Positions 2,141 through 10,710 of a stretch of 64,000 nt of DNA are shown piece by piece. The notes under the pieces are model-generated. The model was given only the letters and a program-made list of their open reading frames with translations. It searched no databases and was not told where the DNA came from. Made by a program: the position numbers and the translations under genes. The stretch is from a phage, in sequence record PZ386957.1. One strand, 5' to 3'. How positions within the stretch are numbered: position 1 is the stretch's first letter; each line of letters opens with the position of its first letter.

Positions 2141-2776
2141 TCAATCGAATGTAGAAAGCAAATGTTTTGTTTCTTTCAGTTGTCGTTCAAGATCTTTGCG
2201 TTTCTCTTTAAGTTGCATTTTAGCATTATTTCGCTCTCTTGTAACCTCTTTATCAATGCTCTTATTCCACTTATCAATATCAGAATAAGTTGGCATACCC
2301 AATTCTAGACCTAATGCGGTTGGATACAGGGTAACAGTCCATAAACCGCTAATCTTCTTAAATAGGTCGGGGTGTAGTGTACTATCTACATCTTCCGGTG
2401 TCAACTCTTTTTCTTCTTTCAGTGGTGGGATCTCGTCATATGGTTCCAGTGCATTTACTTTAATATCAGATACCTCATCAAAGAATCCGCGTACATCCGC
2501 AGGAAATACACAAGCAATTTCCCAACCGTGATCACGCAGAGAAGTAATATTTTTCACTCCCCCACCATGTGTGATGATTGATGTGACATTGCCATCAAGG
2601 TCCACCGAATTTACGAGAAATGGCTTATCGTCTGTCAGATCATTATAAAACTGTGCTTCGGCTGTAGTCATCTCCAGAAACAGATCTCGGATCGGACGAC
2701 CATCAGGTGCGTTACCTTCCTTGAGAGTATAAAAGCGACTTACGATCCATTTTTGCGGTAAAGCATTAGCGATCAT
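2141..2776 (-). CDS. hypothetical protein
   Basis: 211 aa ORF between 41 and 61; C-terminal charged coiled-coil-like tail; no motif recognised. Confidence 0.55.
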   Translation of the reverse strand: MIANALPQKWIVSRFYTLKEGNAPDGRPIRDLFLEMTTAEAQFYNDLTDDKPFLVNSVDLDGNVTSIITHGGGVKNITSLRDHGWEIACVFPADVRGFFDEVSDIKVNALEPYDEIPPLKEEKELTPEDVDSTLHPDLFKKISGLWTVTLYPTALGLELGMPTYSDIDKWNKSIDKEVTRERNNAKMQLKEKRKDLERQLKETKHLLSTFD

Positions 2777-2826
2777 GTTATATCTCCTATCAAATCATTC
2801 ACCAGCGCCCCGTAGGGCGCATTTTA

Positions 2827-4239
2827 TTAGAAAGTCATGTTATTTGCTAGCTCGTCGAGTTTTTCGCGTTTCTCGGCTTGCTGTGCGCTTTGTGGTTTAA
2901 TTTGTGCGTTCTCCTGGTCGGCGATCTGGTTTGGAACTTCATACCAACGCTGATTTCCTTTTTTCACACCAACGTTAAAGCGAGAATAATAGTTCTTATC
3001 GCCGTAACGAGATTTGATCTGCTTGAGCAGTTGAACGCCCATTTTTGCAAGGTCTTCGGTTTCAATCACACCCAACATAAAATCGGCTGTAGCCGGAAGA
3101 CCTGCGGATTCAGCGGTATCACTCATGTTAAGGTCCGATGCATCCCATCCCGCGCGAGTAGTCTGTGCCGCAGTCCAGCCAACAACATCCCACTTAACAA
3201 AAAATCCTCGCAGTTCTTCCGCAATAGCCTTAACTAGTGTGTAACTGTTTTCAGAGTATACACGCAAACGAGACGATGCGCAAATCCCCAGATAGTCAAC
3301 AATTACAACATCAGGTTTAAACTGTTTCTTGAGTCGCAATTCATTCATTAACGCCTCAAAGTGGTTGGAGTTCGCGCCACCAGTCGGATATTGCTTGATC
3401 ATCAGCTTGCCGATTGGACGTTCTCCGGCTTTCTTATTCTTAACACGTTTCATACGTGCCGAATATTCAGCAAAAGAAACATTACCATTATCCAATTCAT
3501 CTAAGGTAATGTCAAGCAAGTTTGCGTCAATACGTTTTGCTACTACGTGCTCTGCCATCTCCATTGAGATATACAGGACATTATAACCACATTCCATATA
3601 ATCGGCAGCGAGAGAACATAAGCCCAATGATTTACCAACGTTTACACCAGCAAGCAACACATTCAAGGTCTTTTTCTCTGCCCCACCTTTCGTTATTTTA
3701 TTCAGACTAGGCAGCTTAAACGGGATCTTATTCGCTTTAGTCTGATATAACAAGAATCGTTTTTCAAAGTCATTAAACCAGTCATGACCTACATCAGAAT
3801 CAAACGTAATGGATAGTGCCTCCTGCATGATCTCAGGAATAGCGCCCTCGCCTGGCAATTTCTTATTCTGTTTTTCTTTTGGTAGCTGTGCGTTCGCCTG
3901 AATCTCTAGCGCCCGTGACATTGCATTATACATAGCACGGTCACGAATAAATTTTTCTGTTTCCTTCATTAACCAATCAAGGTCTTCCGGTGTATTCTCC
4001 AAAGAATCAAGAAGAGTTTTAGCCCCTTCATATGTTGTCTGATTGCCTCTCTCCTTGTCTAAAGCAATCTGTAATGCTGTAGGGGTAGGAATATTGGAAT
4101 ATTCGTCTACATGCTTTTTAATCAGCTTATAAATCAGTTTTTCTTCGTCTTCGGTGAAGTAGTCCGCTTTAAGATGAGGCCATACATTCGTGAAGAATGT
4201 GCCATTATAAATCAACTGTGAAAAGATAGTTTTAATCAT
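2827..4239 (-). CDS. 41: replicative DNA helicase (DnaB-like, T4 gp41-like)
   Basis: 470 aa; Walker A GVNVGKS and RecA-like core; size and position match T4 gp41. Confidence 0.9.
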   Translation of the reverse strand: MIKTIFSQLIYNGTFFTNVWPHLKADYFTEDEEKLIYKLIKKHVDEYSNIPTPTALQIALDKERGNQTTYEGAKTLLDSLENTPEDLDWLMKETEKFIRDRAMYNAMSRALEIQANAQLPKEKQNKKLPGEGAIPEIMQEALSITFDSDVGHDWFNDFEKRFLLYQTKANKIPFKLPSLNKITKGGAEKKTLNVLLAGVNVGKSLGLCSLAADYMECGYNVLYISMEMAEHVVAKRIDANLLDITLDELDNGNVSFAEYSARMKRVKNKKAGERPIGKLMIKQYPTGGANSNHFEALMNELRLKKQFKPDVVIVDYLGICASSRLRVYSENSYTLVKAIAEELRGFFVKWDVVGWTAAQTTRAGWDASDLNMSDTAESAGLPATADFMLGVIETEDLAKMGVQLLKQIKSRYGDKNYYSRFNVGVKKGNQRWYEVPNQIADQENAQIKPQSAQQAEKREKLDELANNMTF

Positions 4240-4241
4240 AC

Positions 4242-4553
4242 TTAGCCTCCAACTACACGCATAACAAAGGTCTTGAGTTTATACCAGAAAGTTTCTTTTT
4301 TCAACTTTTCTTCTGCTTCTTTGATCTGCGCGGTTAACGCCTTAATGACGTGAGGATATACCACATCACGATCTGACGGCGTGGAGTAGTCGACCACAAT
4401 ACCTTTAGTGTCTGGATCGTATTCAACATTATGAATATAGACAATATGATGCTCTCCCTCTTCATCAACAATTATCAGTTCCTGAATAACTGTCTTCATT
4501 GCTTCTTGAATCAAGCCGTGTGCTTCTTCTAAACTCGTTGGTTTCTTATCCAT
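4242..4553 (-). CDS. hypothetical protein in the T4 gene 40 position
   Basis: 103 aa ORF between uvsX and 41 where T4 has gene 40; GAGAGG RBS upstream; no sequence motif confirmed. Confidence 0.5.
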   Translation of the reverse strand: MDKKPTSLEEAHGLIQEAMKTVIQELIIVDEEGEHHIVYIHNVEYDPDTKGIVVDYSTPSDRDVVYPHVIKALTAQIKEAEEKLKKETFWYKLKTFVMRVVGG

Positions 4554-4576
4554 AATATAATCCTCTCTAGATATGA

Positions 4577-4597
4577 AAAAGGGGCACGTAGCCCCTT
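4577..4597 (-). terminator. hairpin after uvsX, possible intrinsic terminator or attenuator
   Basis: GGGGC-ACGTA-GCCCC stem-loop with flanking A/T run immediately 3' of the uvsX stop. Confidence 0.4.
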
Positions 4598-4608
4598 TAC
4601 TACCATTG

Positions 4609-5679
4609 TTATGCTAACATATCTTCGATTTCTTTGTCAACTGCTTCGTCGCTGATCACTTGCCCCAGCTTATAATGGTCATTGATTGCTTCGTTAAACT
4701 TATCGTTTGTCAGAAGTGGTTTCCAGAACTCAATGCTGTTGGTTTCTTTAGCACGGAACTTTCGTTCTTCGGTTTCCATCTCTCCGGTCTCAGTATTCAG
4801 GATGGAACGAGAATACCAGCCGTTTGACGGTTTCACTACCCAACCTAACTCTACAGCCAATTCTAGCAAACCGGAATAAGGATCGATACCACCGCTAAAG
4901 GTTACGCTAATCGGGAACTTAGATTTTTCTTTAACGGTTCGTGATTTTTCCGCATTCAGGATAAAATCATAACCAGTAATTTCGGTTCCTTCTTTCTGTT
5001 GACGACGACCGATAATAAAGCATTCGTTGGCGCTGTACATTGCGCCCGTACCACCGGACATAACGGTCTTGCTAAACATTTCTTGCGTTTCGTATGTGTG
5101 GTTAATCGCAATGCACGGAATGTCATTCATAGTCAGATATGGTGTAATCATACGGAACAAGCCTTTAAGTGCTTTAGCTCGCGTCATATCCTGCGCCGAT
5201 TTCTCATTAATCGCGTCTTCAACTTCTTTTTTGCTTGCTAAGTTACCGATTGAGTCAATAAAGATGATCACTTTATCTTCACGGGTAATTTGCTCAAGCT
5301 GGTTCATGATCTCAAATTTAAGTTCTTCGATGTTCTTGATTGGAACGTGTACCACGCGATCAGGATCTACACCCATAGATGACAGATATGCGGAAGTAAT
5401 ACCAAACTCAGAATCAAAGAACAAACAAGCCGCATCAGGATTCTGTTTCATGTATGCACTAACACAAGTTAATCCCATGTTTGATTTAAAGTGCTTAGAT
5501 GGACCAGCAAAGAAAATCAGACCAGATTGAAAGCCTTTTTTAAGATCACCAGAAAACGCAATATTCAGCATCGGGATCTTAGTGCGAGTATTTGTTTTTT
5601 CGTTAAAGAAGCTGGATTTAGACAGTACCGCAGTAGTTTTCAGGGTAGAGTTCTTTTTCAGTTTTTCCAGTACAGACAT
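4609..5679 (-). CDS. uvsX: UvsX recombinase (RecA/Rad51 family)
   Basis: 356 aa; near-colinear with recalled T4 UvsX (FFNEK..RTKIPM.NIA.SG, GPSK.FKSN, IAINHTYETQEMFSKTVM.GGTG). Confidence 0.92.
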   Translation of the reverse strand: MSVLEKLKKNSTLKTTAVLSKSSFFNEKTNTRTKIPMLNIAFSGDLKKGFQSGLIFFAGPSKHFKSNMGLTCVSAYMKQNPDAACLFFDSEFGITSAYLSSMGVDPDRVVHVPIKNIEELKFEIMNQLEQITREDKVIIFIDSIGNLASKKEVEDAINEKSAQDMTRAKALKGLFRMITPYLTMNDIPCIAINHTYETQEMFSKTVMSGGTGAMYSANECFIIGRRQQKEGTEITGYDFILNAEKSRTVKEKSKFPISVTFSGGIDPYSGLLELAVELGWVVKPSNGWYSRSILNTETGEMETEERKFRAKETNSIEFWKPLLTNDKFNEAINDHYKLGQVISDEAVDKEIEDMLA

Positions 5680-5690
5680 TATTAATACCT

Positions 5691-5918
5691 CTATTCAGTT
5701 AATCCGTAATACTTTAATTGCTTCATTGTTATTCGATCTTTGTAGTGCTCTTGAATTAACTTTTTCATCGCATCAACATCGATCGTCACAAATACTTCGT
5801 TGCTGTGATTTCCGTGAACTTTCTTGAAGTGCTCTATCGCGTCCTCTCGTTCACGTCTAATCTTTTCGATATCTCTCATAGTATATTTCTCACGCTGGCG
5901 GGTATCGTCACCCAACAC
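5691..5918 (-). CDS. hypothetical small protein
   Basis: 75 aa ORF; the only gene between polymerase and uvsX, where T4 carries imm, 42 and beta-gt. Confidence 0.45.
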   Translation of the reverse strand: MLGDDTRQREKYTMRDIEKIRREREDAIEHFKKVHGNHSNEVFVTIDVDAMKKLIQEHYKDRITMKQLKYYGLTE

Positions 5919-5940
5919 CCGCCATTATACACACTTTATC

Positions 5941-7380
5941 TTAAATGTCAAACAGGTCCGTAAGCGATGCCACTTTTTCATATTGCAGCTTTGCAGCCGT
6001 GGTAATGTTCTCCAGTGGTTTGACGAAAGTCTTATTGAACAACAAAGACCAGTCCAACCACTTTAACACCTCTGATTCAATTTCTGGAGGAATACGAGTA
6101 CCAGACAACCAACCAAAACAGATTTCTCCAAACGGATTTCGATCTTTGAGCGGTACGATCATAACTTTCTCGCCCTCACGAATCGGATCTAGTCCAAATT
6201 TTCGAGCATTACGATTATAACACAATACGCTCTTAACCGCATACGGACAGCCCTTAATCGGATACCCGTTTGAATCGCTGTATTTCTGTAGGTTGTTTGC
6301 AGATGATACCGCAGCAACCTCAAGATAGTCAAGTTTTCTAAATTCTTGCTCAAAAATACCGTAGTATTCCTGCAATGACTCTTCACCTTCCTGCAACATA
6401 CGACGAATACATTCTTTCAGTGATTTCTGACATGCTTTAGGTGTAGAACTACGTTGCGTTTCTAAGCCCATGATTTTTAGCTTAGGTTCAGCAAAGCGAG
6501 TTCCTTCCATATCCCAAACATTAAGAGCATAACGCTTTTTACCAGTCCAGAATCCACCGATACCCGCAGATTTCAACGGAGGACCAGCAATTGCCTCACG
6601 GTCCATAAACATCAAGTGCTCATAGTTGTTCATGTACTCGCATAACTCGCGATATCCCTTGTCGATAATAGGTTCCATTCGATGTTTACCGAAATTATCA
6701 AGGAAGTCAACAAGTTTTTCGGTATCGTCGAAACGGTCTTCCCCACCAACCTTATCAACAACATTGTTAACCAGCACATAAACGGAGTCAGTATCACAAT
6801 AACGAACATATGCAAAATCGGTTGTTCCGCAAAGTTCGTTTAAGTATTCGTTAATCTTACGCTCAATCCACTGAATTGCAAGCTGACCGAACAAAGTGAT
6901 CGCACTAGCATTACGCAGATCATACAAACGAAATTTCGGATTTCCTACATATTTTCAATGAGTCGCGCAACCAACTCACCCGCCGTTAGGCTGCTGCATA
7001 TCGCTATGCAGATAAGACTATATCACCTATCAACCGAAGTCAATAGCCCACCATTTCGAGCGCCATTAGCTTGCACCCTACACCGTTACACTCATCACGG
7101 TTAGTCGTTAGGCATTTACAGCATTATAGCTGATTTAGCACGGGATTGTCAACCAGTCCGTATACGTTGATATTCCCCGTTTAGATGGGTTTAAGGTGCG
7201 CTAGGATGTTTACGCACCATAAAGGCTGTTAATCAATACCTTTCGTGAAAGTTGGTTTGTGTTACATAGAATAGACTCGTCTTGACATATCGCTAGATGC
7301 CGTTCTAATTCCTCGATTGGTAACGAATCAAGATAGGCCAATTCTTCATCGGTGAAGTCTTTACGATGATCTATATTCAT
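5941..7380 (-). CDS. 43: DNA polymerase C-terminal subunit gp43B, intron-containing: exon 1 = 7212..7380, group I intron = 6948..7211, exon 2 = 5941..6947
   Basis: ATG at 7380 (AAGGAG RBS) overlaps the HEG stop as ATGA; exon 1 encodes MNIDHRKDFTDEEL...NTNQLSRKVLINSLYGA (motif B KxxxNSxYG); joining U7212 to U6947 reads ...LYGALGNPKFRLYDLRN, colinear with T4 ...LYGALGNIHFRYYDLRN; exon 2 carries motif C YCDTDSVYV; spliced product 391 aa. Confidence 0.82.
6948..7211 (-). ncRNA. group I self-splicing intron, ORF-less, within gene 43B
   Basis: 5' exon end GGUGCGU pairs with intron GCGCACC (P1, U-G wobble at splice site); adjacent intron CCUA pairs with 3' exon UAGG (P10); intron ends in G; internal P/Q/R/S-like elements (CGGGGAAUAUCAACG, AAUCCCGUGC, AACGACUAA, GAUAUAGUCU); two in-frame stops inside. 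Confidence 0.75.
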
Positions 7381-8198
7381 GATATATCTTTCTCCTTAAG
7401 CCGACAATTGTTAAAATGCCAGCGTTTTAAAGACTGTGCAACTCCAGATTTACCGCAATGTGGACATACAGCAATAATTTTCTTGCTTTCTTCCCAGCGT
7501 TTCTTTGCGGCTTCTTTCATCTTTTCTTTAGAGTCGTCAGACATTTTCTTACCTTTCATGCCCTTAACGCAATCTGGATTTTCTGCTATTCTAGCAAGCA
7601 TTCTTTGTCTTTGCAACTCTTTTTTCTCGTCGCTCCACCCTGCGGATATTTTATCACGTTCTTCCTGTGATAGCGTCTTACCAACTTGTTTGTGTGGATT
7701 TTTAGAATAATATTCTTTTAATCCTTTAGCGATCTTTGCCTTTGTATCATCAGAGTGAGATTTGTCAATATCTTTGTTGCTATTATACTTCTCGATGTTT
7801 CTTTTTGAAACGGCATCATAAAATTCTTTGTTTGACTTTCTCGTCTTTTTGATACCGTTAGAAACTTTGACAGCAATTACCGGATTTTTCATCGGGTTAT
7901 TGTCGCCGGAAGTGTCGATGTGATAGAAGCCACCGACACCGCCTAACGTGATGTTATATGTATCAGACCGCTTTAGAAAGTCTTCGTTTACGATCTCGGC
8001 CTCTTTGTCATAAGCGTCTTTCTCGTTATCATATTCAAACAGAATATCTTTATGGAAGTTTTCGACCCCATACTTCGCGATAGCTCGTTTGATATGAATA
8101 CCGCTACCCATATATGAATCATCTGGGTCGTCGGTCTTGTGTACACCAACATAGATCATATTGTTTATCTTATTTGTGATCCGATACACATAATACAT
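7377..8198 (-). CDS. freestanding GIY-YIG homing endonuclease (Seg-like) inserted between 43A and 43B
   Basis: 273 aa; N-terminal GIY-YIG module YVYRITNKINNMIYVGVH, repeated NUMOD3-like S..E.R.KIS segments, C-terminal CPHCGKSG zinc finger; start overlaps 43A stop (TAATG), stop overlaps 43B start (ATGA). Confidence 0.85.
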   Translation of the reverse strand: MYYVYRITNKINNMIYVGVHKTDDPDDSYMGSGIHIKRAIAKYGVENFHKDILFEYDNEKDAYDKEAEIVNEDFLKRSDTYNITLGGVGGFYHIDTSGDNNPMKNPVIAVKVSNGIKKTRKSNKEFYDAVSKRNIEKYNSNKDIDKSHSDDTKAKIAKGLKEYYSKNPHKQVGKTLSQEERDKISAGWSDEKKELQRQRMLARIAENPDCVKGMKGKKMSDDSKEKMKEAAKKRWEESKKIIAVCPHCGKSGVAQSLKRWHFNNCRLKEKDIS

Positions 8199-9685
8199 TA
8201 TTCACCTCGTCGTTTCTTTAACATCTCCTTAATCTTTTCAGCATTACGGTCACACGCCAACATCATGTTTTTGTACTGTTTACGCTGGTCGAACACCTTT
8301 TTGATTTCAATCGGTACTACACCCTGAATATCTTTTCGATACATCCAACCGTTAGGAGAACATGAGTATTCATCGCTAGGCCGTTCCGCTGTTTTATTAA
8401 TATAGTCGATCATTGGCGCGGTGTCAAATGATCCAGCTATAGTTTCCGGCGAAATGTTAACCTGTCGGATGATAGACGGATACAGACTTGTTAAGTCAAA
8501 GCTCATCATCCAACGGTAAGCATTAGGTACTGGTTCTTTTACAAAAGCACCTGGATACGTCTGCTTAGGCTGTATCTTATTTTCCGGTACTACTTTACCC
8601 TCAGCTTTCAGAGATCCGAAGATAATAGCATCCCATACCTTCATCGGGTTATACACATGGTTAAATTTAATCTTTGCATAGTAGCATAGACTATACACAA
8701 GATCGATAAATCCGCGCTTTTTATCAATCGCCAATACACGATCAACGTCGCCGATGTTATAATCGATGTAAAGTTGATGGTTGTCATCACGCAATTTCTT
8801 TAACGGACCATCATAATCAACCTTACCGATTCCTGTCTCATATTCAGCAACATAATCTAATGCATATGTTGGTTGAGTCGTAAAGCTGAATTTCTTGTAC
8901 AGGTCAATGTAATCAAGGCTTTCGATCCCCATGATCGTAAATGCTTCACGCTCGTTGCCAAAATCATCCTGTGAGATTCGGGATTTAATCTTACCGCACG
9001 GGCTTAATCGGTTTGCCGTTCGACTTCCAAACTTATTACTGATACGCTTAATGATATACGGGATATCGAATGTTTCTGTGTTCCAGCCAGTGAAACCAAC
9101 TGGTCGATTTTCCTCAAAGAATCGGATGTATTCTAACAGCAATTCATCTTCCGTATCGTAGACGTTATAAACAACACGCTCTACTATATCAGGTCGAAGA
9201 ATAGACTTTCTTGCTTCCCATATTTCACCGTTTTTGCCTTTCAAATCAAAGACAAAGAAACGATCATGTACGGAATCATAATGCGTAATTGCATCAATAG
9301 GATATTTTGCTTCTTCTGGCTTCGGGAATTCCGGCGCAGTAACCTCAATATCAACCCATGCTACACGGATTTTATTTCGGTCATATCGAATCTCACCCTT
9401 GTATGTGTCGGATAGATAGGAGATGATAAAATCATCCATTCCTAACGCCTCTTGCCCCATCTCTCCCATCTTTTTACGCCATTTGTTGGCCTCGTTCATA
9501 GATGGGAATTTTTTAGCAATGCAAGGCTTGCCATAGATATCTTTATAATTAGTAACCATACCAGGCGCGGCATGATGAAATAAAGTTGGCGTATACTCAA
9601 CGTAACGCTCTTGTTCTTGTCCGGTATCATCAATATAACGCTCGTAGATCTTATCACCTACTCTCTCACATGACAGAAAATACAT
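8198..9685 (-). CDS. 43: DNA polymerase N-terminal subunit gp43A (N-terminal and 3'-5' exonuclease domains, motif A)
   Basis: Start refined to ATG 9685 (MYFLSCERVGDKIYERYIDD vs T4 MKEFYISIETVGNNIVERYIDE); contains FDIPY, YNI.DV, DLTSLYPSIIRQVNISPET; ends with TAA where T4 gp43 continues. Confidence 0.9.
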   Translation of the reverse strand: MYFLSCERVGDKIYERYIDDTGQEQERYVEYTPTLFHHAAPGMVTNYKDIYGKPCIAKKFPSMNEANKWRKKMGEMGQEALGMDDFIISYLSDTYKGEIRYDRNKIRVAWVDIEVTAPEFPKPEEAKYPIDAITHYDSVHDRFFVFDLKGKNGEIWEARKSILRPDIVERVVYNVYDTEDELLLEYIRFFEENRPVGFTGWNTETFDIPYIIKRISNKFGSRTANRLSPCGKIKSRISQDDFGNEREAFTIMGIESLDYIDLYKKFSFTTQPTYALDYVAEYETGIGKVDYDGPLKKLRDDNHQLYIDYNIGDVDRVLAIDKKRGFIDLVYSLCYYAKIKFNHVYNPMKVWDAIIFGSLKAEGKVVPENKIQPKQTYPGAFVKEPVPNAYRWMMSFDLTSLYPSIIRQVNISPETIAGSFDTAPMIDYINKTAERPSDEYSCSPNGWMYRKDIQGVVPIEIKKVFDQRKQYKNMMLACDRNAEKIKEMLKKRRGE

Positions 9686-9717
9686 AATATAAACTCCTTC
9701 ACTTACGAAAGACACTC

Positions 9718-9746
9718 ATTATAGGGGAATCGACTTAGTTTGTCAA
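9718..9746 (-). promoter_or_regulatory. sigma70-type early promoter upstream of gene 43A
   Basis: Minus strand reads TTGACA-17 nt-TATAAT; flanked by inverted repeat ATAGGGG/CCCCTAT. Confidence 0.6.
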
Positions 9747-9767
9747 TACCCCTATCCCATCAGTATC

Positions 9768-10130
9768 TTAGCGTCCGATCTGATACTTTTCGATCAGTGT
9801 CCATTCTTCTTTCTGTTTGAAAGACAGAACACGGAAGTTATTCACTTCGGTAGTTTCAAAATCACTATCAATCAGGGTACACAGATTCCACTGCGCAAGA
9901 AGTTTTGCAATGTTATTACGGCGTAACTCATCTTCCCACGTCATTTTAACACTACGACCATCTAATTTCAATAACTCCTTGAAGTGAACGATATAATAGC
10001 GCCCTTTCTTCTGGAGAATATGACAAGATTGATACAGTGTCTTGTCTCGATTATTGGCAATGCCGCAGCGGGTTAAAGTCTCCTTAATTTTAAGGAAGTT
10101 TTCAGGATTAATCAAATTAATTTCAATCAT
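9768..10130 (-). CDS. regA: RegA translational repressor
   Basis: 120 aa; MIEI.L..PE.FLK.KETLTR.GIANN.DK.LYQSCHILQKKG.YYIVHFKE matches recalled T4 RegA almost residue by residue. Confidence 0.92.
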   Translation of the reverse strand: MIEINLINPENFLKIKETLTRCGIANNRDKTLYQSCHILQKKGRYYIVHFKELLKLDGRSVKMTWEDELRRNNIAKLLAQWNLCTLIDSDFETTEVNNFRVLSFKQKEEWTLIEKYQIGR

Positions 10131-10131
10131 T

Positions 10132-10710
10132 TTACCACCTTTCTATAATCTTTTTAAGTCGTTTCCTTTCTGTTTGGTTCTTAGTAACACCCGCCAAAAG
10201 TTCATCGGTCGCATACGGTTTAATGTGCTTCAATAACTTGTCCATATATCCCTTTTCATTAGCCAAATCGAGATAAAACCGGGCGTCATCCATATTTACA
10301 CAATATGCTTTCGCCACTGCCATTAAAACCAATTTTTGGTCCAATTCTTCTGTTAGTTTAGCCCATTTACCGTATCGTTTCCCCTTAGAAATACTCTGTA
10401 AGAGATAATCAAAATGCATTTGATCTGGGAGGCCATGACCGATTAAATTCATCACATACGCGCTATATAGGCAATCTGCGTGCTGGGAAAGAGCGGTGTT
10501 AATCCATCTCTGGTTATATGCAGAATTGTTTCCCACATTAACGTGCTGTTTATCTAAGGTGATATGATCCATCAGAGCAAATAATGCATTGTCGGTTTTC
10601 TCGGTGAATGTATCCGCTAATTCAGACACCTTTTCCCAATCACGAGAGCGCCATGCAATTTCATGCTCGTTTAATTGTGTATCATCTTCACCGAAAAATT
10701 GACCTAACAT
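10132..10710 (-). CDS. 62: clamp loader small subunit (gp62-like)
   Basis: 192 aa; QLNEHEIAW, KRYGKWAKL and C-terminal QLKK motifs recalled from T4 gp62; synteny regA-62-44-45. Confidence 0.8.
   Translation of the reverse strand: MLGQFFGEDDTQLNEHEIAWRSRDWEKVSELADTFTEKTDNALFALMDHITLDKQHVNVGNNSAYNQRWINTALSQHADCLYSAYVMNLIGHGLPDQMHFDYLLQSISKGKRYGKWAKLTEELDQKLVLMAVAKAYCVNMDDARFYLDLANEKGYMDKLLKHIKPYATDELLAGVTKNQTERKRLKKIIERW

Follow-up and report, generated by a model that had tools for sequence, protein, structure and literature searches.

In the window studied here, a 64,000-nucleotide (nt) stretch of phage DNA (sequence record PZ386957.1), the replicative DNA polymerase gene, gene 43, codes for two polypeptides, with the break at the fingers tip, and a freestanding homing endonuclease gene (HEG) of the GIY-YIG type lies between the two cistrons, 43A and 43B. 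The HEG belongs to a larger imported cassette, together with both new polymerase termini and a group I intron in 43B. We consider it highly probable that an RB49-type gene 43 was invaded by this composite mobile cassette, resulting in a two-part polymerase that would be read from one early transcript; spread of the cassette by collaborative homing is the least certain part of this reading. Coordinates are window positions unless another phage or a contig is named, and every gene-43 feature lies on the minus strand (Table 1).

Table 1. Features of the split gene 43 in the window, and the corresponding boundaries in phage G2285 (ORF, open reading frame; aa, amino acids)
Feature	Position	Strand	Description
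Early sigma-70-type promoter of gene 43	9718..9746	-	TTGACA-17-TATAAT, 12/12; hexamers verified
43A	8198..9685	-	495 aa; N-terminal domain, exonuclease domain, palm motif A, first fingers helix
Upstream reduced-identity tract	8246..8485	-	72-88% identical to RB49 versus 95-100% beyond 8540; candidate co-conversion tract
Foreign cassette relative to RB49	6948..8236	-	1289 nt; 43A tail (13 codons), HEG, 43B head and intron; from blastn and protein alignment
HEG Shine-Dalgarno sequence GAGG	8205..8208	-	Within the final 43A codons, 6 nt ahead of the ATG
Freestanding GIY-YIG HEG	7377..8198	-	273 aa; N-terminal GIY-YIG, NUMOD3-like middle, C-terminal CPHC...H..C zinc-finger-like motif
43B Shine-Dalgarno sequence AAGGAG	7392..7397	-	Within the final HEG codons
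43B exon 1	7212..7380	-	56 codons + 1 nt; new N-terminus, second fingers helix up to motif B (KVLINSLYGA)
ORF-less group I intron	6948..7211	-	264 nt; interrupts the Leu codon of YGA-L-GN (motif B) behind its first base
43B exon 2	5941..6947	-	Palm motif C, thumb, C-terminal tail ...LTDLFDI
Downstream reduced-identity tract	6886..6945	-	87% identical to RB49, then 98-100%; candidate co-conversion tract
G2285 gene 43 (L002 coordinates), boundaries resolved here	2416-6217		43A 2416-3936; HEG 3992-4813; 43B exon 1 4813-4981; intron 4982-5213; exon 2 5214-6217

Two polymerase cistrons, an endonuclease gene and a group I intron

The 43A cistron starts with the ATG at 9685-9683, preceded by GAAGGAG and in agreement with the annotated start of RB49 gp43, the gene 43 product, and its C-terminus reads ...NAEKIKEMLKKRRGE (in longer form, ...DRNAEKIKEMLKKRRGE) ahead of the TAA at 8200-8198. 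The 43A product matches Pfam DNA_pol_B_exo1 and DNA_pol_B and contains motif A (DLTSLYPS), while motifs B (KVLINSLYG, the site of the intron) and C (YCDTDS) are found in 43B. Spliced 43B amounts to 391 aa, and the two products together (495 + 391 = 886 aa) compare with gp43 lengths of 898 aa in T4 and 892 aa in RB49. RB69 gp43 residues 4-504 align with 43A residues 2-490 (E value 2.8e-189) and residues 515-902 with 43B residues 2-390 (E value 3.6e-161), and therefore nothing essential is missing from the two halves. Both halves are under strong purifying selection, with ratios of nonsynonymous to synonymous substitution rates (dN/dS) relative to RB49 of 0.027 for 43A and 0.017 for 43B exon 2. 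The break falls at about 510/511 in T4 numbering and at 504/515 in RB69 numbering, within the RB69 fingers domain, residues 469-572 by the published boundaries. It lies in the variable loop at the tip of this domain. The two long fingers helices are therefore divided between the subunits, each of which also supplies part of the palm.

A first-pass annotation, made from the letters of this DNA, had reported over 5941-9746 that a freestanding GIY-YIG HEG divides gene 43 into the cistrons 43A and 43B, with stop/start overlaps TAATG and ATGA and a combined length close to that of T4 gp43. The split was confirmed base for base on the minus strand, the overlaps are present as described, and the lengths agree. 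The alignment to gp43 that it had proposed gave the RB69 segments listed above, with the break in the same column as in Aeromonas phage 25. Within the reported range the gene features were borne out; the upper limit, 9746, belongs to the -35 hexamer of the promoter and is not coding. A sequencing or assembly error, which the same annotation had named as grounds for refutation, is ruled out because an intact ORF of 822 nt lies between the halves and because the junctions recur in independent metagenomic assemblies.

The three cistrons adjoin without a spacer. The HEG start codon (ATG, 8198-8196) takes its first A from the last A of the 43A stop codon (TAATG), and the HEG stop codon (TGA, 7379-7377) overlaps the 43B start codon (ATG, 7380-7378; ATGA). 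The 43A/HEG junction sequence CGACGAGGKGAATAATG and the HEG/43B junction sequence AAGGAGAAAGATATATYATGA are kept in the metagenomic contigs L005, L006, L011 and L012, and junctions and Shine-Dalgarno sequences persist even where the HEG is only 56% identical. From these conserved overlaps and Shine-Dalgarno sequences we infer that 43A, the HEG and 43B are translationally coupled.

The HEG is intact and under selection, with a dN/dS of 0.096 relative to the HEG of L005. Its product matches Pfam GIY-YIG (PF01541; 26.1 bits versus a cutoff of 22.6, residues 1-72) and PHROG 314, 'homing endonuclease' (E value 1e-46); a match to NUMOD3 (PF07460) reaches 17.3 bits, under the cutoff of 20.4, and this domain is precomputed as present in close relatives. 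Residues Y5, Y16, G18, E66 and N82 are invariant among eight family members; they are presumably the catalytic-motif residues of I-TevI (the tyrosines of GIY and YIG, with the Glu and Asn further downstream). The family alignment has 48 invariant columns, all of which the window HEG keeps, including CPHC...H..C. A PDB sequence search with the HEG returned no meaningful match and none to I-TevI, and an exact-sequence look-up found no record of the protein.

Several alternative features were considered around the HEG and rejected. An intein or an intron-encoded HEG is contradicted by the lack of a Hint domain and of a second intron, by the HEG's own ATG and stop codon and by its abutting both cistrons without a spacer. 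Hairpins occluding the HEG or 43B ribosome-binding sites were dismissed, as RNA folds at both junctions are no stabler than those of shuffled sequence (z +0.32 and -0.83). A candidate internal HEG promoter inside the imported tract, a near-consensus sigma-70 site (11/12) at 8427..8399, is missing in L005 and L011/L012, which have the same cassette, and is therefore not a cassette feature. The T4-type late promoter TATAAATA does not occur in 5700-9900; the whole window has three copies, no more than expected by chance.

The intron matches Rfam RF00028 at 7245..6994 over the full model (1-253) with 52 bits, relative to a gathering score of 50 (cmscan, E value 1.9e-11), and no second intron was reported by cmscan in 5500-10200 even at E values up to 1. 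Comparison with RB49 set the splice boundaries: exon 1 ends ...GGTGCGT at 7212 and exon 2 begins TAGGAAAT at 6947. The intron has the correct splice-site features, in that the exon GGUGCGU pairs with the intron GCGCACC (7201-7195) to form P1, with the canonical U.G pair at the 5' splice site, and the intron 3' end reads ...AUAUG with the terminal G at 6948. Removal of the intron restores the frame exactly and gives YGALGNPKFR as in RB49, within ...YGALGNPKFRLYDLRN...

Two further observations concern the intron. It holds a perfect sigma-70 consensus on the minus strand at 7123-7152 (TTGACA-18-TATAAT, 12/12), whose -35 hexamer overlaps the conserved core element GACAATCC; the L005 intron shares it (TTGACA, 17-nt spacer, TATAAT), and the introns of G2285 and phage 25 do not. 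This consensus may have arisen by chance or be left over from the promoter of an intron ORF since lost. Separately, dozens of T-even-type phages (Tequatrovirus/Mosigvirus), such as HY03, JK45 and vB_EcoM_F1, contain unannotated stretches of 156 nt that match the intron core (6991-7156) at about 75% identity, and an nrdD region of a Vibrio phage matches it as well; presumably the matches belong to related group I introns that interrupt other genes.

The gene-43 promoter occupies the place equivalent to the annotated hypothetical early promoter of RB49. The leader and promoter region (9650-9760, minus strand) folds with far more than shuffled stability (-35.6 kcal/mol, z -4.9). An inverted repeat, ATAGGGG...CCCCTAT, flanks the -35 hexamer on both sides, and a second hairpin, which spans the Shine-Dalgarno region, may correspond to the translational operator of gp43 in RB49-type phages (PMC3014915).

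An RB49-type backbone carrying an imported segment

The region is 93-96% identical at the DNA level to RB49 and about 60 other Krischvirus genomes, in all of which gene 43 is a single cistron. In the phage collection, 0 of the 70 matching records has the cassette, since none covers more than about 69% of the query and therefore none contains the insert. A further 24 kilobases (kb) of the window are about 93% identical to the same Krischvirus phages, and the source is therefore a distinct RB49-like phage outside the collection.

Homology to RB49 by blastn is continuous over 9900-8237, absent over 8236-7289, returns at 82% identity over 7288-7212, is interrupted by the intron and stands at 96% from 6945 on. 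The cassette takes the place of about 224 nt of RB49-type sequence. In 43B exon 1 the first 92 nt have no homology to RB49 and the last 77 nt are 82% identical, and exon 2 has 96.4% nucleotide identity. At the protein level, the polymerase is 97-99% identical to RB49 gp43 (43A 97% outside its tail) save for about 49 RB49 residues at the break, which are swapped for the 13-residue 43A tail and a 43B head of about 31 residues. The segment of gene 43 was thus evidently imported, leaving a mosaic gene. Identity to RB49 is lost stepwise toward the cassette on both sides (Table 1), and the two flanking tracts look like the pattern expected of co-conversion accompanying homing, a concept described in PMC2988022. 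The donor belongs to an unsampled lineage, because the upstream tract is no nearer to L005 than to RB49.

A large protein database held closer relatives of the HEG than those of cultured phages, all of them metagenomic. A HEG with 86% identity (P0001) was found on at least 19 contigs, in a Krischvirus-like context and with identical overlaps, and the 264-nt 43B intron of the window is also present in L005-L010 (e.g. ENA ERZ27235410 k99_539). A 222-aa HEG with 56% identity (P0003) was found on at least 24 contigs, again in Krischvirus-like surroundings and including L011-L014, in which 43B has no intron and an ORF-less group I intron (Rfam, 59.5 bits) is located at motif A. The backbones of these contigs are only 84-88% identical to the window, and none is a described phage. 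In IMG/VR, a profile of the HEG family recovered only distant relatives (up to 43% identity; L015, L091) and phage 25 itself.

These contigs show additional variation at motif A and in the HEG. In L005, 43A is broken again at motif A (DLTSL/YPS, the slash marking the site) by a 1.1-kb insertion (4603-5716) with a 274-aa HNH endonuclease (PHROG 12434, E value 1.8e-130), and part of the motif-A intron of L011-L014 is 83% identical to the 43B intron of the window. The motif-A insertion site corresponds to window positions 8483-8495, which are uninterrupted, yet the upstream reduced-identity tract ends almost exactly there. The short HEG in L011 (6001-7841) and L012 (528-2368) lacks about 50 internal aa of the NUMOD3/linker region. 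Several synonymous differences from RB49 at the intron insertion site of L011/L012 were considered as 'immunity' substitutions and set aside as no evidence, being unremarkable at an overall divergence of about 15%. L011 and L012 would serve well as natural controls on whether the intron protects against the HEG.

Relation to split and interrupted genes in cultured phages

Full-length tblastn matches of the HEG are best inside gene 43 of other phages, namely G2285 (47%) and Aes120, phiAS4, Aes508, Aes512, Aes517, 25 and Aes002 (43-36%); for Aes120 the identity is 43%, and for phage 25 it is 36.6% over 98% of the query (E value 2e-44). The homology search of the insert suggested in the first-pass annotation thus led to the gene-43 HEGs of G2285 and Aeromonas phages, and the arrangement, whose earlier description that annotation had left as a question, is known in kind (phage 25, the Aes series, phiAS4, G2285) while absent from every Krischvirus record of the phage collection.

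In phage 25 of A. salmonicida, gene 43 comprises 43A, an intercistronic untranslated sequence, the freestanding GIY-YIG HEG seg43(25), and 43B with a group IA2 intron, an arrangement reported by Petrov, Ratnayaka and Karam (J Mol Biol 2010 395:457, as cited in PMC2988022). Its annotation gives 43A, a GIY-YIG endonuclease and a 43B 'split by group IA2 intron', as does that of Aes120, and the layout is also present in phiAS4, Aes120, Aes508, Aes512, Aes517 and Aes002. The window shares with this type a HEG that is homologous over its full length (37-43% identity). The window, L011, G2285 and phage 25 all have gene 43 split in one and the same alignment column. In the window, L005, G2285 and phage 25, moreover, the 43B intron, an ORF-less group I intron, follows the identical nucleotide, immediately after GGTGCGT, with cores that align. 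A signature in the 43B head, DF..(D/A)E(L/I).YL..L, is common to the split alleles and missing in the unsplit alleles of their own backbones, which fits the idea that the coding sequence of the fingers tip travelled along with the HEG.

In the Aeromonas alleles a hairpin-bearing untranslated spacer of 44-58 nt separates 43A from the HEG (44 nt in phage 25, 58 nt in Aes120), whereas the spacer in the window is 0 nt; this lack is the only structural difference from the Aeromonas type. Such an untranslated sequence does not necessarily define the type, and in phage 44RR it occurs by itself. The phages themselves differ, the window being a Krischvirus on E. coli and phage 25 a Tulanevirus on Aeromonas, with about 51% aa identity in 43A. 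Petrov and colleagues are said to have shown in 2010 that intron-free 43B alleles are cleaved. As PMC2988022 summarises the 2010 paper, gp43A and gp43B of phage 25 co-purify with polymerase activity. The freestanding HEG of phage 25 is the predicted homing enzyme of its ORF-less intron (PMC2993671), and PMC2988022 cites this phage as an example of collaborative homing.

Among cultured phages, the HEG nearest to that of the window (47% aa identity) belongs to the Mosigvirus vB_EcoM_G2285 (MK327933), which grows on E. coli. Its gene 43 is split as in the window and carries an intron at the matching site, the latter scoring 83.6 bits against Rfam; in contrast to the window, its backbone is T-even-type and a spacer of 43-55 nt with a promoter-like TTTACA...TATTAT lies between 43A and the HEG. 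In the GenBank record, gene 43 is entered as a misc_feature with the remark 'unable to determine intron/exon boundaries'; we have resolved these boundaries (Table 1).

Other systems share parts of the arrangement. By its published description, Aeromonas phage 44RR also has a gene 43 split into 43A and 43B with a two-subunit polymerase, but with a short untranslated spacer alone, without a HEG and without an intron (PMC2988022). JSE, of the same genus Krischvirus as the window phage, likewise has a gene 43 interrupted by a group I intron (PMC2993671); it is located at motif A (DLTSL/YPS) rather than motif B, there is no fingers-tip HEG split, and one polypeptide results after splicing. Freestanding HEGs split essential genes whose products reassemble in Aeh1 nrdA (mobE) and in T4 topoisomerase 60/39 (mobA) (PMC2988022); these cases differ from the window in having HNH-family HEGs, other host genes and no accompanying intron. 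In collaborative and trans homing, for example the mobilisation of the T4 nrdB intron by mobE (PMC2790892), a freestanding HEG adjoins an ORF-less or defunct intron, and the insertion site is the presumed target. Unlike in the window, the host gene is not split by the HEG either in this case or in that of the cyanophage psbA gene. The psbA intron with its adjacent freestanding HEG was reportedly described by Zeng, Bonocora and Shub in 2009.

We rejected phiAS4 as a precedent for the overlap of 43A and HEG, since its annotated 43A merely reads through the spacer after an apparent frame change. In this phage (L096, 1448-3022) the 43A of the 'split DNA polymerase' runs into the HEG start, with the frame change near its 3' end and a tail reading ...KKNSGFQGRKGRPLMF... 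as against ...KKILASRGEKVDH in Aes120; the change is probably a sequencing or annotation frameshift.

Proposed origin and operation of the split gene, and its significance

The cassette most likely entered through double-strand-break repair during a mixed infection, and would have brought a Seg-like GIY-YIG HEG, the flanking segments coding for a new 43A C-terminus and a new 43B N-terminus, and the intron located 169 nt downstream. 43A, the HEG and 43B would be read from a single early gene-43 transcript; a late promoter is lacking, and so is a conserved internal one. The stop/start overlaps of 1 nt and 4 nt and the buried Shine-Dalgarno sequences may then lead to translational coupling, which would tie the output of 43B to 43A and the expression of the HEG to gene 43. 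The 43B message would lose its intron by splicing, and gp43A and gp43B are expected to reassemble into an active enzyme, because the phage 25 subunits co-purify with activity; contacts between palm segments and two antiparallel fingers helices, one from each subunit, could hold them together. In the least certain step, for which phage 25 provides the analogy, the HEG would cleave an intron-less gene 43 at the position where the intron inserts, or close to it. A genome with the intron would thereby be protected, and in collaborative homing the HEG would move together with the intron and the stretch of polymerase sequence between them. Whether the insertion site really is the target we consider about evenly balanced; the proposal fits the repeated co-occurrence of HEG and intron across three genera.

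Several points weigh against this scenario. Splicing, coupling, subunit assembly and HEG activity in the window phage are all things that we infer. The Rfam score of the intron is barely above the threshold (52 versus 50), and the L005/L006 intron, about 90-92% identical to that of the window, was not reported by cmscan; given its colinear alignment with the window intron, we attribute the latter to filter or threshold effects. With junction folds of no more than shuffled stability, there is no structural evidence for regulated coupling. Finally, a related HEG occupies the split without a 43B intron in L011-L014 and L091, and the intron is therefore not obligatory for carriage of the HEG; in such intron-less carriers the cleavage site may differ, or the 222-aa HEG may be defective.

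The same contigs bear on the possibility that HEG and intron are independent, the HEG cutting an unsplit gene 43 near its own insertion point at the fingers tip or elsewhere in the gene (intronless homing) and the intron being a separately arrived bystander. We regard this as possible but doubtful. In its favour, the HEG split is found without the 43B intron in L011-L014 and L091, the motif-A intron occurs in JSE and L011 without linked dependence on the fingers-tip HEG, Seg enzymes often cut hundreds of base pairs from their own gene (PMC2988022), and the reduced-identity tract extends about 240 nt upstream of the HEG compared with about 60 nt downstream of the intron. Set against this are the co-occurrence of HEG and intron, each time at one exact nucleotide, in the window, L005-L010, G2285, phage 25, phiAS4 and Aes120, spanning three genera, and the description of the freestanding HEG of phage 25 as the reported or predicted homing enzyme of the intron (PMC2993671, PMC2988022). 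Domestication of the HEG, locked in as a spacer or regulator of polymerase subunit stoichiometry because ribosomes would have to complete it before translating 43B, or a main role as a weapon that excludes the gene-43 alleles of co-infecting phages instead of a purely selfish one, seems improbable to us. It would account for zero-spacer overlaps that are kept on both sides across diverged lineages, even with an internal deletion in the HEG, and it accords with marker exclusion by Seg enzymes, which is documented in T-even phages (PMC2988022). However, the strong Shine-Dalgarno sequence of 43B (AAGGAG) makes an independent translation start possible, no significant RNA structure is present to enforce coupling, and the purifying selection on the HEG (dN/dS 0.096), which might otherwise speak for domestication, is equally expected of an actively homing HEG.

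That the polymerase is rejoined into one chain, with the HEG inside an unrecognised intron or by protein splicing, translational bypassing or read-through, is in our view very improbable. Gene 43 in the RB49-type group does carry introns, and T4 gene 60 is a precedent for translational bypassing; to our knowledge, however, a bypass of 822 nt has none. Moreover, not one non-coding nucleotide flanks the HEG ORF on either side, and therefore there is no room around it for intron core elements. The single intron reported by cmscan over the region is the one in 43B, the products of 43A, the HEG and 43B contain no Pfam Hint/intein domain, and 43B has its own conserved Shine-Dalgarno sequence and ATG. 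In the account of phage 25 given in PMC2988022, the homologous genes yield two polypeptides. Even smaller is the chance that we are dealing with an assembly chimera or with a defective phage whose polymerase gene is inactivated. Such an artefact would explain why a cassette in a Krischvirus backbone is found in no isolate genome of the phage collection and why the exact HEG protein is not on record, but it is opposed by the same junctions in at least 19 contigs with the 86% HEG and at least 24 with the 56% HEG, from several independent samples, by dN/dS values of 0.02-0.03 on both polymerase halves, and by ORFs that are all intact, with a splice that restores the frame exactly.

A more far-reaching proposal goes beyond the invasion of an RB49-type gene 43 by a composite cassette, and we consider it unlikely: the HEG, the fingers-tip segments and the motif-B intron would form one integrated transfer unit that has passed between genera with different hosts, Tulanevirus (Aeromonas) and Mosigvirus and Krischvirus (Escherichia), each time carrying its own fingers-tip sequence, with all spacer sequence lost in Krischvirus, the HEG translated as the middle cistron of an early polymerase operon and 43B synthesis made dependent on it. 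If true, a selfish gene would have been locked in as a required part of the expression of the replicative polymerase.

The architecture itself was published in 2010 for phage 25 and is also present in the poorly annotated E. coli phage G2285. What is new is its occurrence in an RB49-type Krischvirus backbone, with a cassette that is in no isolate record of the phage collection. All untranslated spacer has also been lost on both sides of the HEG, which is likewise new, and the related contigs reveal gene 43 of Krischvirus as a hotspot with three separable elements: an intron at motif A, which may or may not bear an HNH HEG, the HEG at the fingers tip, and an intron at motif B.

Together, these data extend the two-polypeptide replicative polymerase brought about by a HEG from Aeromonas phages to coliphages of the RB49 group. 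They place the same composite element in at least three genera of T4-like phages, which bears on the 2010 view that there is no demonstrable crossing between clusters (PMC2993671). Automated annotation will mis-call a split gene 43, as illustrated by the undetermined boundaries of G2285 and by the separate 'DNA polymerase' fragments of JSE and phiAS4. Our understanding of how such systems work is unchanged, and the finding will not surprise a specialist; its use lies in annotation and in an E. coli model. An E. coli phage with a split allele, alongside dozens of unsplit RB49-type genomes that are about 94% identical, offers a convenient test system that would suit studies of collaborative homing, of polymerase co-conversion and of the assembly of split PolB enzymes.

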